Shown: positions 7,466-40,740, counted from the first letter of the stretch. The stretch: DNA of 52,704 nucleotides from Pseudomonadota bacterium (GCA_043805375.1 JAZDIA010000099.1:1-52704), one strand, 5' to 3'. Notes: a model not told the origin generated them from the sequence alone. Numbers and translations: made by a program.

Positions 7466-7542
7466 TGGTAGGCGCGATTGGACTCGAACCAACGACCCCC
7501 ACCATGTCAAGGTGATGCTCTAACCAGCTGAGCTACGCGCCT
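7466..7542 (-). tRNA. tRNA-Val (anticodon GAC), CCA encoded
   Basis: The reverse complement folds as a cloverleaf: acceptor AGGCGCG/CGCGCCT, D stem GCTC/GAGC, anticodon loop TTGACAT, T loop TTCGAGT, 3' ACCA. Close to E. coli tRNA-Val(GAC). Confidence 0.95.
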
Positions 7543-16761: not shown

Positions 16762-16807
16762 CAAAGAATTCGATATGCGCGGCGACTTAAATCGCGCCCC
16801 CGTTGTG

Positions 16808-17145
16808 GCAGAGTTGCGCTTGTTGCGCGGACGAGAAACCGTCCGCGCGGATCGCCGATCTTGTATAGAACCCCCGCACTGCCCTTGTTTTTATCCATAA
16901 CCGTGTTTTCTTTACGGATGTGCTTTTCATCCGTAAAGAAAACACGGTTGGCGCGCGCGAGCGCGCAATGTTCGCTAGCCGACATCGGCGGACGTCGGAG
17001 GATACATCGAGCAATGGCGCTGGAACTTGCGCGGACGGCGACCCGTCCGCGCGTTGTCTTTATTCTTATCCATAACCGTGTCCACGGTTGGCGCGCGCAG
17101 CGCGCAAGTCCGCCGATGGAACTAAGACGCCGTATATAACGCCGC
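16808..17145 (+). repeat. Composite multi-hairpin repeat, locus A: one full unit plus one collapsed unit in tandem, between the convergent dnaJ and cysS
   Basis: Shares modules and linkers with 26317-26551 and 40537-40740. 21-bp perfect stem at 16899-16919/16929-16949. The second unit has hairpins at 17029-17052 and 17074-17089. Confidence 0.85.
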
Positions 17146-20924: not shown

Positions 20925-20993
20925 TTTAAGTGAAGACCAGCGCCGGCGCCATGCAAGCGGTAGCCCTCATTTCAGAAAAATGGCGAGCGCATC

Positions 20994-25013: not shown

Positions 25014-26291
25014 CTACGCCTTCGGTGACTCCCGCGCAGCGAGAACGTCTGCAACGGTATGAAAGGATCCAAACACCACAATTCTATCATTATCGGCAGC
25101 CTCGTTGCAGGCAGCCGCATAGGCAAGCGCCGGACTTTCGAACTCGCGCACCGCGTACACGCCGGCCTGCCGCAGCGCCTGCGCCAGCTCCGCTGCCCGG
25201 GCACCGCGCGGCGGCGGCAGGGAGCAGACCAACCACTGATCCACGTGCTGCGCGAGCAAGCTCACTACGCCGGCAATGTCCTTGTCGCGCAACATGCCGA
25301 ATACCGCCCAGGTAGCCGAGCAAGGACCCATGTCGAACAGGTTGTCCGCCAGGACTGCGGCCGCGTGCGGGTTGTGTCCGACGTCGAGCACCACTGCCGG
25401 CCGTCCCGGCAGCACCTGAAAGCGTCCGGGCAACCCGACCTCGGCTAATCCACGTCGTAGTTGCTCGATTGAGAGCGGCAGCCACTGCTGCAGCATATCC
25501 AGGGCCGCGAGCGCCGCATTCGCATTTTGCATCTGGACCCTGCCGCGCAGCGCCGGGTAGACGAGGCCGGATTTCCTGCCTGCCGGCCCCCAGAACAACC
25601 ACTGATCGGGCTCGACCTCGCAGCCGAATTCCAGCCCGATGCGCAGCAGCCGCGCGCCTATTGCCTGCGCGTGCGCCAGCACCGACGCCGGCGGCGCAGG
25701 ATCGGCCAGCACCGCCGGTTTGCCGGCGCGGAAAATGCCGGCCTTCTCATAGCCGATAGCCTCGCGCGTGGCGCCAAGATAATCCATGTGGTCCAGGCCG
25801 ATGCTGGTGACGATGGCGCAGTCGGCGTCAAAGGCATTCACCGCGTCCAGGCGTCCGCCCATGCCTACTTCCAGCACCAGCACGTCGACGGCGCTGCGCA
25901 GGAACAGATCCACTGCGGCGAGCGTGCCGAACTCGAAATAAGTCAGGCGCGTGTTCCCGGCCTTTTCCGTTCTGGCCGCCTCGACCCGCGCGAATGCGCA
26001 AGCGAGCATCGCATCATCGGCCTCCTTTCCAGCGATGCGCACGCGCTCGTTGTAGCGCAGCAGATGCGGCGAGGTATAGAGGCCGACGCGATAGCCCGCC
26101 GCCGAGAGCATGGCTTCCAGCATGGCGCAGGTCGAGCCTTTGCCATTGGTGCCGGCAACGGTGATGACCGGAACCGCGGGCCGAAGGCCCATCGCGGCGC
26201 GCACGCGCTCGACCCGCTCCAGTCCGAGGGCGATGGCCTGCGGATGCTGCTGCTCGATGTAGGCGAGCCAGCCGGCGAGATCTTTAGGCAC
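25014..26291 (-). CDS. folC: Bifunctional folylpolyglutamate synthase / dihydrofolate synthase (GTG start)
   Basis: WLAYIEQQHPQAIALGLERV, P-loop VAGTNGKGST; 425 aa. Confidence 0.9.
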   Translation of the reverse strand: MPKDLAGWLAYIEQQHPQAIALGLERVERVRAAMGLRPAVPVITVAGTNGKGSTCAMLEAMLSAAGYRVGLYTSPHLLRYNERVRIAGKEADDAMLACAFARVEAARTEKAGNTRLTYFEFGTLAAVDLFLRSAVDVLVLEVGMGGRLDAVNAFDADCAIVTSIGLDHMDYLGATREAIGYEKAGIFRAGKPAVLADPAPPASVLAHAQAIGARLLRIGLEFGCEVEPDQWLFWGPAGRKSGLVYPALRGRVQMQNANAALAALDMLQQWLPLSIEQLRRGLAEVGLPGRFQVLPGRPAVVLDVGHNPHAAAVLADNLFDMGPCSATWAVFGMLRDKDIAGVVSLLAQHVDQWLVCSLPPPRGARAAELAQALRQAGVYAVREFESPALAYAAACNEAADNDRIVVFGSFHTVADVLAARESPKA

Positions 26292-26316
26292 TTACGAATC
26301 TAGCGTTGACATAATT

Positions 26317-26551
26317 GGAATTGCGATGTTGCGCGGACGAGAAACCGTCCGCGCGGATCGCCGATTGCGCACGGACGAAAAGACGTCCGTACGCAATCGG
26401 CGATCTTGTATAAAAACAACCCCAAGCCGTTGTTGCCATAACCGTGATTTTGGTACGGATGCGCGTTTCGTCCGTACCAAAATCACGGTTGGCGCGCGTA
26501 GCGCGCAATGCCTGTTACTCGCATGCGACAGTACTTAGGATGCCGTATATA
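26317..26551 (+). repeat. Composite multi-hairpin repeat, locus B (most complete copy), between accD and folC
   Basis: Hairpins at 26331-26354 (9 bp), 26356-26405 (22 bp, 1 mismatch), 26415-26434 (6 bp), 26440-26490 (20 bp perfect) and 26489-26508 (GC palindrome). Homologous to loci A and C. Confidence 0.9.
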
Positions 26552-26557
26552 GTGTGC

Positions 26558-27427
26558 TCAGGCGTGCTCCGGAGCGACGCGCATCAGCAGCGTAATCAAC
26601 TGCGCCAGCCGGTCGCGCATCTGGCGCCGGTCGACGATCATGTCGATGGCGCCCTTCTCCAGCAGAAACTCGGCGCGCTGGAAGCCTTCAGGCAGTTTCT
26701 CCCGCACGGTCTGCTCGATCACGCGCGGACCGGCAAAGCCGATCAGCGCGCGCGGCTCGGCGATGATCACATCGCCCTGCATGGCGAAACTCGCCGACAC
26801 GCCGCCCATAGTGGGATCGGTAAGCACCGAAATGAATGGGAGCTTGCGCGCCGCGAGTTGGGTCAGCACCGCCGTAGTCTTCGCCATTTGCATCAGCGAC
26901 AACAGTCCCTCCTGCATGCGTGCGCCGCCGGTGGCAGTGAAGCAGACGAAGGGCAGGTTCTGCTCCACGCACACGTGCACGCCGCGCACGAAACGCTCGC
27001 CCACCACCGAGCCCATCGATCCGCCCATGAACTCGAACTCGAACACTGCCGCCACCAGCGGGACGTTCTTGATTGCGCCCTGTATCACTACCAAGGCGTC
27101 AGTCTCGCCGGTTTGGCGTTGCGCATCTTCGAGGCGGTCGGAATAGCGCTTGCTGTCCTTGAACTTGAGGGCGTCCAGCGGCAATACCTCGGCGCCGATC
27201 TCGAAACGGCCCTCGGCGTCGAGCAGCATGTCGATGCGCGCGCGCGCCGACAGGCGATTGTGATAGCCGCACTTGGGACAGACGTTGAGGTTTGTTTCCA
27301 GTTCGCTGGCATAAAGCACCGCGCCGCAGGACTCGCATTTGATCCACACCCCTTCCGGCACCGCACGCCTGCCCGGTCCGATGGATCGCTTGATCTTGGG
27401 CGGCAGCAGTTTCTGCAACCAGTTCAT
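26558..27427 (-). CDS. accD: Acetyl-CoA carboxylase carboxyltransferase subunit beta
   Basis: [13 protein letters not shown], zinc ribbon CESCGAVLY...CPKCGYH. The start at 27427 overlaps the trpA stop (ATGA). Confidence 0.95.
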
Positions 27428-31698: not shown

Positions 31699-34425
31699 TC
31701 AGTCCTGGGCCGAGAGCATGGTCTGCGCTTGTTGCTGCTGGGCCGCGTCGCCCTCGTTCAGCACTTCCTTTAGGAGTTCGCGCGCCCCGTCCTTGTCGCC
31801 CATCTCCTGGTAGGCTTTGGCCAGGTCGAGCTTGGTTGCCACCTCCTGCCAGCGTGCATCAGCGGGTGCGGCTTCGGCGCCCGGTGCGCCCAGATCCAGA
31901 CTGATCGAGGACAGGTCAATCGGCGCTGCCGGCGCTTCTTCCTTTTGCGTTTGAAGACTCACGTTGAAATCGAAATCGATACCACCGCCGCCCTCGGCGG
32001 ATCCGGCCGGCGCGGTTGGCGCTGCCGGCGCTTCTTGCTTCTGCGCCGGAAGATCCAGGTTGAAATCGAAATCGATGCCATCGCTGCCTTCGGCGGGTCC
32101 GGCCGACGCCGCCGCAGTGACGATCGGAAGCTCGCCGGGCGCGTGCGCCTGCTCGGTTTTCGCCGCGTCGCCGGCCGCGGGCAGTTCGAAATCAAAATCT
32201 ACGGACGCGGCCGCCTCAGGGACCCCGAGCGCCTGGGCGTCCAGGCTCGGCGTGCCGCCGGCAGCGACTTCGGGAGGTTTCTCGCCGCCGCCCAGATCGA
32301 GATCGAGATCGAAACCGAGATCGGCCGTGACATCGGTAGCGGGTGCAGTCCCACTATCGGGTGCAATACCGGGCTGCGCGCCGGCTTCAGCAGGTGAGCT
32401 CAAACCCAGATCAAAATCCAAACCAGCGAACGCGGCCGGCTCCTGCACGCCAGCATCCAGCCCAATAGCCGGCGCCGCCGCAGCGGCGACTTCAGCGGCG
32501 GAAAGAACCTGGGTATCGGTGGCGCGAGGAGTTTCGCCCGCTGCAGTCTTGCCGCCATAGAGCGGATTTTTGGGGTCAAGTTGCAAGCCCAAAGCGACCG
32601 CTTTTCCCCACTCGGTCCCGGCGCCGCCAGTGGCGGCCTGGAGTTCGACCGCTACGGCTTCGAATGCCTTGGCATCCTTGCGGCCGGCGTAGATTTCCAG
32701 CAATTTAATGCGAATTGCCTGTCGCGAAGGATCCTTCGCCAGCGCCTCCTTGAGAATTTCCTCTGCCTGTGCGTCGCGGCCGTACGCCATGTAGACATCG
32801 GCTTCTGCAATCGGATCGACTTCCCCGGTGTCGATAGCCACTGCTGCCCCGCCCCGGCTGAAATCGCCTTGGATTTCGACGGGACCGGTATCGACCCTGT
32901 CGCGGCCAGAAGCGCCAAACACGGAGTCGGTCGCCAGACCCGGCGCTCCCATTACGCCGCTCTCGGTTTTCTGCAAGGTCTTCTTGCGCCGCCAGGCGTA
33001 ATAACCATAACCGCCGAACAAGAGCAGCAGAAAACCGCCGCCGCCGTAAAGGGCCAGTTCGTTACCGAGAATTTCGTCGACCAAACCGGGCTCCGGTGGA
33101 GGCGGTGGAGGCGTCACAACCTTGGACGCCGCTTTAGGCGCTGGCTTGGCGGGCTCGCCGGCTCTAGCGGGTTCGCCTGCCTTAGCAACAACGGTGGCCT
33201 TGGCAAGCTCAGGCGCCTTCGCCGCAGCCGCATCTTTGGCCACTTCCGGCGCCTTCGCCGGTTCTGCGACTTTGGCCGCGCCCGCCTTGGCGGCTTGCTG
33301 TTGCAATAGGGCCCCAGACTGGCTTTTCAGCTCGAGCAGCTTCTGCAATTCCTGCACGTTCTTCTCTAGCATCGCGATGCGCTCATTCGCATCTTTGATC
33401 GCTTTGTCCTTGGCGAACAAGTCTTCCCGCAGCCCCTGCGCGCTACGGCTTGCGCCGGGCTTGCCCGGCTCTTCCGCCTTGGAAAGCCTAAGCTGGTCTC
33501 CGGTATCCATTGCCACCGCGGGTTTGTCTTCGACCTTCGCGGTGATCTTGCCGCTCGCGCTCCGGCGGAGCGAATCGGCTCGTTCCGGCGCAGCCGCAAC
33601 CGCCGCAGCCAGGTTGCGGCGGTATTCGTTGAAATCGGCAACTTGCGCGATCAGCAAGCGCGTCGCCTCGGACTGGTCTACCGATGCCGCCGCGTCCTTG
33701 TCTGGAATATTGAGAATTTTGCCGGCACGCAGGCGGTTCATGTTGTTGCCGTCGAATGCGTCGGTATTGCTGCGATACAGTGCCAGCAGCATTTGCTGCA
33801 AGCTGACGTCATACGATCTATTGGCGTTGGCAATCTTTACCAGCGTATCGCCGCGCTTCACTTGGTAGGTGCTGGCAGCCTTGGGTGCCGCGGGCTCAAG
33901 CGGCTTGTCCATGCCCGGCACGCGGGGGCGCAATTCTGGTTGCTTCGGCACCTCAACGGACATGATCACCGGCGCTGCACTCTCCGCCGGCGCGGCCACC
34001 GCGGGTGCCGGCTGGGGCGGTTTGTATTCGGGAGGGTCGAGCAGGAAGGTATACTCACGCACGAGCCGGCCGCCAGCCCAGTCCAGTTGCACCAACAGAT
34101 CGAGGAACGGTTCGTTCATCGGCTGCGCCGAACTGAGGACTATGACATGACGGTCCTCGCCGCGCTGCTCGAGGCTGAATCTGACCGACAGCAGCGCGCC
34201 GCTGTACTCGATGTTGGCTTGCCGAAACGCCTCTGCAGATGGCAGTTGCACGCTGAGGCTGTCCGCTTCACCCTTTTGCATCGAGACCAATTCGATCTCA
34301 GCGTTCAAGGGTTGTCCCAAGCCGGAAAACACAGTCAGCTTACCGAGCCCCGCAGCAACCGCTAGTGACGGCAGCAATAGAAATGCCAGGGCCACCGCAG
34401 TTGTTTTTATGACGGATTTACCCAC
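31699..34425 (-). CDS. fimV: FimV-like peptidoglycan-binding motility/scaffold protein (GTG start)
   Basis: Signal peptide, LysM-like segment (YQVKRGDTLVKIANA...), mid TM helix, acidic DFDF-repeat region, C-terminal TPR-like motif (LDLAKAYQEMGDKDGARELLKEV). Confidence 0.8.
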   Translation of the reverse strand: MGKSVIKTTAVALAFLLLPSLAVAAGLGKLTVFSGLGQPLNAEIELVSMQKGEADSLSVQLPSAEAFRQANIEYSGALLSVRFSLEQRGEDRHVIVLSSAQPMNEPFLDLLVQLDWAGGRLVREYTFLLDPPEYKPPQPAPAVAAPAESAAPVIMSVEVPKQPELRPRVPGMDKPLEPAAPKAASTYQVKRGDTLVKIANANRSYDVSLQQMLLALYRSNTDAFDGNNMNRLRAGKILNIPDKDAAASVDQSEATRLLIAQVADFNEYRRNLAAAVAAAPERADSLRRSASGKITAKVEDKPAVAMDTGDQLRLSKAEEPGKPGASRSAQGLREDLFAKDKAIKDANERIAMLEKNVQELQKLLELKSQSGALLQQQAAKAGAAKVAEPAKAPEVAKDAAAAKAPELAKATVVAKAGEPARAGEPAKPAPKAASKVVTPPPPPPEPGLVDEILGNELALYGGGGFLLLLFGGYGYYAWRRKKTLQKTESGVMGAPGLATDSVFGASGRDRVDTGPVEIQGDFSRGGAAVAIDTGEVDPIAEADVYMAYGRDAQAEEILKEALAKDPSRQAIRIKLLEIYAGRKDAKAFEAVAVELQAATGGAGTEWGKAVALGLQLDPKNPLYGGKTAAGETPRATDTQVLSAAEVAAAAAPAIGLDAGVQEPAAFAGLDFDLGLSSPAEAGAQPGIAPDSGTAPATDVTADLGFDLDLDLGGGEKPPEVAAGGTPSLDAQALGVPEAAASVDFDFELPAAGDAAKTEQAHAPGELPIVTAAASAGPAEGSDGIDFDFNLDLPAQKQEAPAAPTAPAGSAEGGGGIDFDFNVSLQTQKEEAPAAPIDLSSISLDLGAPGAEAAPADARWQEVATKLDLAKAYQEMGDKDGARELLKEVLNEGDAAQQQQAQTMLSAQD
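31923..32110. repeat. 96-bp in-frame tandem duplication in the acidic C-terminal part of fimV, plus shorter degenerate relatives upstream
   Basis: GCGCTGCCGGCGCTTCTT...GTTGAAATCGAAATCGAT recurs with period 96 (31923 and 32019). Encodes the GIDFDFN... 32-aa repeats. Confidence 0.85.
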
Positions 34426-40460: not shown

Positions 40461-40536
40461 AATGAGAATCTCGGCTGCGGCAGCGCAAAGCTCAAACGTT
40501 CATTCTACATGGCGCAGCGCAAGCGCCACCTTTCTG

Positions 40537-40740
40537 CAGAGTTGCTATGTTGCACGAACGAGAAGCCGTCTGTACGCAATCGGCGATCTCGTACAAAACC
40601 ACCACGCCGTGTTTGGTGTTAACCATAACCGTGTTTTCTGAACGGATGCGCTTTTCATCCGTTCGGAAAACACGGTTGGCGCGCGCAGCGCGCAAACCCG
40701 CTGCCGACAAACGACGGTAATTCAAGCGCCGTATACGCCG
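40537..40740 (+). repeat. Composite multi-hairpin repeat, locus C, in a divergent intergenic region
   Basis: 21-bp stem at 40628-40648/40658-40678 (one G.T), then TTGGCGCGCGCAGCGCGCAA and the terminal GCCGTATA. Same orientation as loci A and B. Confidence 0.85.

Follow-up and report, generated by a model that had tools for sequence, protein, structure and literature searches.

A conserved hairpin-repeat copy between accD and folC belongs to a previously unnamed family of mosaic MITE-like elements in uncultured Burkholderiales

The stretch of DNA analyzed here (the window: 52,704 nucleotides, GCA_043805375.1 JAZDIA010000099.1:1-52704) is an ordinary housekeeping region that contains recN, dnaK, dnaJ, cysS, ppiB, purF, cvpA, dedD, folC, accD, trpA and fimV. 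Its sole Rfam match at the gathering threshold is a tRNA gene on the minus strand (7469-7542). Two tandem 96-nt repeats at 31922-32109, ~85% identical, lie inside a 908-aa ORF (31699-34425, minus strand) and are probably an ordinary repetitive acidic linker in a protein with a FimV N-terminal domain. Our gene calls for accD and folC agree with an earlier note on this DNA, which described the two genes as co-oriented and separated by an element that is almost wholly self-complementary. The locus and the element within it, which we call copy B, are laid out as follows.

25014-26291, minus strand: folC ORF, with a GTG start at 26291 and a TAA immediately upstream.
26292-26315, minus strand: non-repeat spacer from the element to the folC GTG, ending in the mRNA sense with ...CCAATTATGTCAACGCTAGATTCGTAA and then GTG, and kept among the alleles that carry the element.
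26316-26330, plus strand: truncated head of copy B, GGAATTGCGATGTT, which covers HMM positions 36-49 and has no left terminal module before it.
26331-26339/26346-26354, plus strand: H1, 9 bp, GCGCGGACG-AGAAAC-CGTCCGCGC, a family-invariant sequence.
26356-26377/26384-26405, plus strand: H2, 22 bp, 95% complementarity, with one C.A mismatch that becomes G.U in the accD-folC mRNA sense.
26406-26435, plus strand: linker CTTGTATAAAA and a variable small hairpin (26415-26420/26429-26434, AACAAC/GTTGTT), the least conserved module.
26436-26492, plus strand: H3, with a stem at 26440-26459/26471-26490 of 20 perfect pairs (100%).
26489-26508, plus strand: H4, TTGGCGCGCG-TA-GCGCGCAA, invariant in 81/81 core copies and the right end of the recently copied core.
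26509-26551, plus strand: terminal tail of copy B, ...GCATGCGACAGTACTTAGGATGCCGTATATA, which repeats in inverted form the left terminal module found in full copies.
26558, minus strand: stop of accD, with trpA upstream of accD.

The four hairpins and the small hairpin of the earlier note were all confirmed, the small one by direct reading of the sequence and the others with a repeat finder. H3 is built from CCATAACCGTG, a copy-specific stem ATTTTGGT, the apex ACGGATG...CGTCCGT, the opposite stem ACCAAAAT and CACGGTTGG; its stem interior serves as a copy-specific "barcode" that is common to all orthologous copies. In the mRNA sense, RNA of the 281-nt spacer has a minimum free energy of -137.3 kcal/mol (z = -10.2), and plus-strand DNA has one of -83.7 kcal/mol (z = -9.9); 0/200 shuffles fold as well in either form. 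We likewise found no conserved ORF in the repeat unit. A promoter scan of the accD-folC region gave one weak plus-strand promoter-like match, and the folC GTG start (window 26288-26300) has no visible Shine-Dalgarno sequence.

Two further copies lie in the window. The same module order had been placed near 16808-17145 and 40537-40740 on the plus strand, and our searches found it there, at 16775-17144 and 40547-40735. Their parts are listed below.

16774-17138, plus strand: copy A, a two-unit head-to-tail array between the convergent dnaJ and cysS genes.
16774-16798, plus strand: left terminal module of copy A.
16825-16848, plus strand: H1 of copy A.
16850-16860, plus strand: collapsed H2 of copy A.
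16895-16951, plus strand: H3 of copy A.
16948-16968, plus strand: H4 of copy A.
16969-17026, plus strand: inter-unit linker of copy A.
17027-17053, plus strand: H1b, which opens the second unit of copy A.
17070-17091, plus strand: collapsed H3 of the second unit.
17088-17107, plus strand: H4 of the second unit.
Ending at 17138, plus strand: tail of copy A, with the end GCCGTATATA.
40504-40735, plus strand: copy C, with a divergent MFS transporter gene on one side and a spermidine-synthase-like gene on the other.
40550-40579, plus strand: H1/H2 fusion hairpin of copy C, whose left module is degenerate.
40623-40679, plus strand: H3 of copy C.
40676-40695, plus strand: H4 of copy C.
Ending at 40735, plus strand: tail of copy C, with the end GCCGTATA.

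Copy B had been taken for the most complete of the three, which does not hold, because it is missing the left module of about 35 nt that copy A has at 16774-16798. Read on the minus strand, copies A and B do start near a stop codon, as the earlier note observed, but at about 14 nt for copy A and 6 nt for copy B (from the end of its tail to the accD stop) rather than 7-8 nt. The collapsed hairpins keep only the base of the stem (GATCGCCGATC in copy A and CCATAACCGTGtcCACGGTTGG in its second unit). They are deletion derivatives, and a shortened accD-folC allele described below (L159) was made by the same process. Elsewhere in the window, between an L,D-transpeptidase-like gene and ppiB, 69 nt at 20925-20993 hold a remnant, ACCAGCGCCGGCGCC, of a lost gene. 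At the same junction the related MAG SCTX (L057:4050-4846) has a copy of the family and an extra signal-peptide cyclophilin paralogue, so the remnant points to a deletion in the window's lineage.

The repeat is far more numerous than three copies. We searched one genome per GTDB species for an exact 23-base core motif, CACGGTTGGCGCGCG-N1-4-GCGCGCAA, and found it in at least 115 genome blocks from 21 uncultured MAGs. Among the matches listed, the carrier MAGs are labelled Burkholderiales, Betaproteobacteria or Proteobacteria and come from groundwater, soil and lakes. The motif also occurs on L069 (CAYNVY010000027.1), in a MAG labelled "uncultured Enterobacteriaceae"; this contig is probably mis-binned or mislabelled. 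An iterated nhmmer profile, run over 0.85 Mb of fetched DNA that is enriched for the repeat, returned 198 non-redundant matches with a consensus of 275 nt. They fall into at least 142 clusters, where the earlier note had counted a family of three, and orientation and distance to stop codons were recorded for them. With three sites in 52.7 kb, the density of the window would extrapolate to on the order of 200 sites per genome.

The full unit consists of an optional left terminal module, H1, H2, the variable small hairpin, H3, H4 and a tail. The left module (about 35 nt, TATACGYGGCGACTTAAATCGCGCC..GTTGTTGCAGAGTTGCGATG) lies upstream of H1 and is an inverted repeat of the tail, GCATGCGACGGCATTTAAGACGCCGTATATA. 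H1, H2 and H3 share the apex CGGAYG-loop-CRTCCG with a loop of N6-8, which therefore occurs three times per unit, with the H3 apex inverted: the H2 apex is the reverse complement of that of H3. H4 is followed either by the terminal tail or by a conserved linker that leads into the next unit and so produces head-to-tail arrays. All units of a cluster are on one strand in 141/142 clusters. The consensus unit folds with -149.5 kcal/mol. The fixed order of H1, H2, linker, H3 and H4, the inverted H3 apex, the conserved linkers and the dedicated inter-unit linker are what defines a BIME. No known element was recovered by any of our comparisons: Rfam gave only the tRNA and chance miRNA-like hairpins (gathering scores for the window, E up to 10 for the spacer), blastn with the spacer found no match among PLSDB plasmids, the core motif had 0 matches in IMG/VR viral contigs, and a full-text literature search for four motif strings returned unrelated primers only. 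We conclude with high confidence that the element is a member of a non-coding family of interspersed, mosaic, MITE-like repeats, not named before, in an uncultured Burkholderiales clade, and that the accD-folC spacer is an ancient, conserved copy of it with a truncated 5' end.

The family is strictly intergenic, with 0/142 clusters overlapping a gene call, and it is enriched where the flanking genes converge. Among the 114 clusters that have two flanking genes, 40 (35%) lie between convergent genes, compared to 90/645 (14%) in the background; divergent flanks are found for 6 (5%, against 77/645 or 12%) and tandem flanks for 68 (60%, against 74%). The element end nearest the upstream gene lies a median of 10-14 nt after its stop codon. 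In the tandem clusters, the plus strand of the element is antisense to the genes in 42 and sense in 26. Neighboring clusters are co-oriented 13 times and opposed 11 times, which indicates no replication-strand bias. The shared plus orientation of the three copies in the window, correctly described in the earlier note, is thus a coincidence. All of the genes bracketed by copies are housekeeping genes.

Comparison of accD-folC junctions shows how copy B came to its place. Scanning metagenomes with FolC yielded about 50 loci with 75-89% FolC identity. At 14 of them the spacer is empty, 18-30 nt long and mutually homologous (TGA-CTTCATTGGCGTTCCGAT-TTG). Ten have a single element in a spacer of 273-283 nt, one (L124) has a two-unit array with an intact left module in 575 nt, and one (L159) has an internally deleted element in 147 nt. 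Because close relatives hold either the empty spacer or the same element, the element is an insertion, as the earlier note supposed when it described accD and folC as otherwise adjacent genes split by it. All filled alleles carry the H3 barcode ATTTTGG and the same tail, and we therefore assign them to a single insertion event. In L124, the equivalent of 26292-26315 falls outside the terminal module of the element. Two of the contigs with a filled allele, Ga0080064_1000014 and Ga0082335_1000016, are 0.6-0.7 Mb long. The start of folC differs between the allele classes, being mostly GTG-ACA-AGA-GAT in filled and TTG-CCT-AAA-GAT in empty alleles.

In a neighbor-joining tree of accD and folC, filled and empty alleles interleave. 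Since the empty spacers are homologous to each other, this pattern suggests exchange of alleles by recombination rather than repeated precise excision. One locus, L123, has an empty accD-folC site, yet another family copy lies 4 kb away. A second clean pair of filled and empty sites is provided by L005:4228-4505 compared to L047 and L068, where both boundaries of the insert coincide exactly with the terminal modules. At about 16 further loci, accD and folC are separated by unrelated, hairpin-rich sequence of 104-185 nt (L119, L127, L130, L136, L137, L138, L144-L146, L150, L152-L155, L171 and L180). Examples are GCGCAAAGAAA...TTCTTTGCGC in L119 and L130 and GGACGCAGA...TCTGCGTCC in L137, L150 and L154, and some of these inserts include H4-like GCGCGC-N-GCGCGC motifs. 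Palindromic repeats of different kinds seem to have landed at this junction again and again. Contig L066 starts inside the accD-side copy (1-178), and L125, L126, L135, L141 and L151 end near folC; evidently the repeat breaks short-read assemblies, several contigs beginning or ending inside the element or at this junction.

The pairing of the hairpins is maintained across the family. We aligned 81 core copies (alignment A1) and predicted 55 pairs with RNAalifold. Compensatory double changes occur in 29/55 pairs, compared to 12.3 +/- 1.8 in shuffled alignments and 7-15 in slid controls. Alignment cells with a change on both sides number 268, compared to 72 shuffled and 12-24 slid, and 97.7% of cells form a standard pair, compared to 92.3% shuffled and 24-46% slid. 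For each of these three measures, 0/500 shuffles scored as high. The covariation is confined to H2 and H3, whereas H1 and H4 are invariant. The ratio of G.T to A.C mismatches does not depend on which strand is the mRNA (odds ratio 1.03, p = 1.0), and selection on a single RNA strand has thus left no signature. Such symmetric pairing is expected of DNA hairpins, of RNA hairpins in both orientations or of template-switch correction, which can maintain pairing in quasi-palindromes.

At accD-folC, the element itself is conserved. Over eight orthologous filled alleles, mean pairwise identity is 90.7% for the element, compared to 89.0% for all sites and 75.5% for third positions of accD, and 83.3% and 68.5%, respectively, for folC. 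Within the whole spacer, paired columns average 90.7% and unpaired columns 87.5%. The copy evolves about three times more slowly than neighboring synonymous sites, and the difference between 90.7% in the element and 75.5% at accD third positions indicates purifying selection. We considered hitch-hiking, by a recent sweep or recombination, as a source of the high identity; it is excluded by accD third-position identity, which stays flat, each 50-codon window as far as the stop giving 0.74-0.77. Compensatory changes can also be seen in place: L148 has a C-G to G-C replacement in H2, and L120 and L118 have T-A and C-G at a pair that in the window copy reads G.U in the mRNA sense, the intermediate between the two. 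Strong conservation is not a general property of other sites. At 15 other orthologous sites the element is 0.65-0.86 identical (0.76-0.86 where the alignment is clean), below flanks at 0.82-0.92 and no higher than the baseline of ~0.80 between random paralogous family members, and we therefore claim it for the accD-folC copy only.

Taken together, these results lead us to favor, with a probability of about 0.6, the view that the accD-folC spacer holds an old copy of a high-copy, non-coding, clade-confined family of the BIME/MITE kind, whose hairpins are under selection and play a stem-loop role in the transcript. The family spread into short intergenic spacers just after stop codons. One insertion separated accD and folC, otherwise 18-30 nt apart, and this copy has then been inherited and, it seems, exchanged as an allele; copies decay through deletions that span hairpins. 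The hairpins are probably selected as intrastrand nucleic-acid structures that could work in either orientation. REP/BIME elements form stable stem-loops at transcript 3' ends and between cistrons, and the likeliest role here would be similar: stable stem-loops in the accD-folC transcript may block 3'-5' decay of the upstream message, and they may also separate the accD and folC cistrons as E. coli REP/BIME do. Weighing against a role of the RNA are the equal mismatch frequencies for the two strands and the absence of terminator-like sites from 26150-26700. Past spread would have relied on a putative trans-acting enzyme that recognizes hairpins. The hairpins might conceivably also have a role at the DNA level or be constrained by the mobilizing enzyme.

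The nearest rival, which we consider a tentative possibility, is that the elements are of the REPIN/REP type: the CGGAYG hairpins would be REP units, cleaved and copied as single-stranded DNA by a single-copy RAYT, a Y1/HUH transposase, encoded elsewhere in the genome, and their conservation would reflect recognition by this enzyme. The earlier note had raised a REPIN/BIME-like mobile repeat, and much of that proposal stands, since the family is a high-copy intergenic mosaic with presence/absence polymorphism and near-identical pairs. REPINs are strictly extragenic, present in high copy number and vertically persistent at orthologous sites (PMC3116915; bioRxiv 10.1101/2021.07.10.451892). Our family behaves in the same way. 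Each unit contains the same apex hairpin three times, one of them inverted, and its pairing is kept with no transcribed-strand bias, as expected for DNA hairpins. A further point in favor comes from the recently copied unit. Copies within a MAG are ~81% identical and hence old, but two near-identical within-MAG pairs (96.7% and 98.3%) have unrelated flanks, and one of them also has a tandem duplicate. The identity in these pairs spans ~ATGTTGCGCGG in H1 to GCGCGCAA at the end of H4 and excludes the outer termini, so that the recently copied unit begins and ends in hairpins. It may be the H1-H4 core, bounded by the 8-nt inverted sequences TTGCGCGC/GCGCGCAA; alternatively, the pairs may reflect gene conversion between existing copies.

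What weakens the REPIN/REP model is the anatomy of the hairpins and the outcome of a search for the enzyme, whose gene is usually flanked by the repeats in such systems. The hairpins have no conserved GTAG at their 5' foot, and H3 has GTAC or GTGC inside its stem, where it covaries. The apices of H2 and H3 are mutually inverted, yet each hairpin folds on itself and their outer stems are unrelated, so they do not pair as a REPIN doublet. The RAYT gene suggested for a search did not turn up: a regular expression for HUH...Y-x3-NP matched 0 ORFs in six frames of about 0.85 Mb of DNA enriched for the repeat, and the repeat-bracketed genes in this DNA are all housekeeping genes with no transposase among them. 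Neighboring copies are also not co-oriented.

A classical DDE-type MITE, which would be a deletion derivative of an insertion sequence mobilized through its TATACG...CGTATA ends with TA/TATA duplication and is now mostly dead and neutral, appears rather unlikely. Some features expected of a MITE are present, namely presence/absence polymorphism at orthologous sites, a length of 275 nt and no conserved ORF, and the ~81% identity of copies within a genome fits an old element. The left module and right tail are inverted repeats, with a matching C-to-T change at both element ends in L113. Both ends carry TATA, and the insertion in L005 is bounded exactly by the terminal modules. The outer ~19 positions are complementary in roughly half to all of 8-24 scorable full copies, depending on position, and long-range pairing of the termini is moderately supported over these ~19 nt and poorly further in. 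However, among the 142 clusters we found 27 left and 23 right termini, the left module is carried by only about a third of copies, and in the two recent copy pairs the shared sequence stops short of both termini. Beyond the terminal TATA, the empty sites and 14 full copies gave no direct repeat (the empty site reads CATTAT/GAAG, compared to CATTATAC...GGTATATAAGAAG when filled), and none of the termini found belonged to an element with TATACG ends that encloses an ORF. The accD-folC copy, three times slower than synonymous sites, is hence not neutral. All terminus motifs found lie within repeat clusters, except L067:151-175 and L110:4227-4249, the latter a contig-end tail. In L067 (146-180), a left module, TATACGTGGCGATTCGGATCGCTCC, fills on its own the 35-nt gap that separates two convergent genes. 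The rest of the element is absent there, and this module is either a relic of a former copy or a small hairpin module in its own right.

We also entertain, as a doubtful extension, a "hairpin cassette" that is retained by the host, is independent of orientation and is read by a dedicated protein, either a new REP-associated enzyme or a structure-specific binder. Jointly with this, the protein would read the invariant H1, H4 and CGGAYG apex, and purifying selection would maintain the cassette for some function in the cell, for instance the insulation or stabilization of neighboring cistrons like accD and folC. Were this so, the family would represent a REPIN-like symbiosis of Betaproteobacteria whose multi-hairpin architecture would be new.

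E. coli BIMEs have been proposed as sites for DNA-binding proteins, and by analogy H1, H4 and the other hairpins could be putative binding or cruciform sites for a nucleoid, gyrase-like or other DNA-binding protein. This would suit the invariance of H1 and H4, which have no covariation, the conservation of unpaired linkers (87.5%) and the independence of orientation and transcribed strand. We nonetheless think it improbable: inspection of the AT-rich linker by eye revealed no IHF-type consensus, neither a binding protein nor a consensus site was identified, and the preference for positions after stops and between convergent genes fits insertion tolerance or transcript function equally well.

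The earlier note's second proposal, a structured intercistronic RNA or terminator, is not favored across the family, given the mixed orientation (42 antisense, 26 sense), the absence of a G.U bias and 0 terminator-like sites (a hairpin followed by a T/U run) on either strand of 26150-26700. A dedicated cis-regulatory RNA specific to accD/folC (a riboswitch, attenuator or terminator) would explain the very stable structure in the mRNA sense, the G.U at the sole H2 mismatch and the conservation of the entire spacer among filled alleles, but it is essentially ruled out by the family census, which places the same unit beside unrelated genes in every orientation, and it is further opposed by the many close relatives whose accD-folC junction has no element, the absence of an Rfam match and the absence of a hairpin followed by a U tract.

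Among the known systems that come close are the E. coli REP/BIME, which are extragenic, multicopy, mosaic palindromes in arrays that lie after stops or between convergent genes and show compensatory stem changes. The family, too, is extragenic, multicopy and arrayed, and its short palindromic unit occurs in both orientations. As in REP/BIME, conserved linkers join the units in fixed order, copies lie behind stop codons or where genes converge, and compensatory change keeps the stems paired. It differs in having no sequence homology, no GTAG, a much larger unit (five hairpins in ~275 nt, two of them with 20-22-bp stems) and arrays of whole units placed head to tail, and no RAYT was found in 0.85 Mb. 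The REPIN-RAYT systems of Pseudomonas and Enterobacteria resemble it in long vertical persistence, orthologous positions shared between species and rare recent duplicates, but a REPIN is two inverted REPs that form one hairpin, whereas here each hairpin is self-contained.

Comparable small, non-coding, MITE-like repeats with inverted ends are Correia (nemis) in Neisseria, ERIC/IRU in enterobacteria and BOX in S. pneumoniae. Our family is likewise small and non-coding, with inverted ends, and like theirs its transcripts can fold into long structures. Correia ends, which have an association with TA, begin TATAG..., and the ends here also begin with TATA. BOX is built of modules, the internal ones varying in number, and ERIC has size variants that arise through internal insertions and deletions. 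Unlike these three, to which it has no sequence similarity, the family conserves its inner hairpins and not its termini, which are optional.

The family opens no new category of element. With its 275-nt model, intergenic regions can be masked and annotated by the hundreds in these genomes. The family also explains breaks of MAG contigs at intergenic sites in the clade and is a lineage marker for an uncultured groundwater and soil clade of Burkholderiales. The accD-folC copy provides a clear example of a non-coding repeat copy evolving three times more slowly than neighboring synonymous sites, and the natural contrast between filled and empty alleles could be used to test how an array of REP/BIME-like hairpins affects operon expression.
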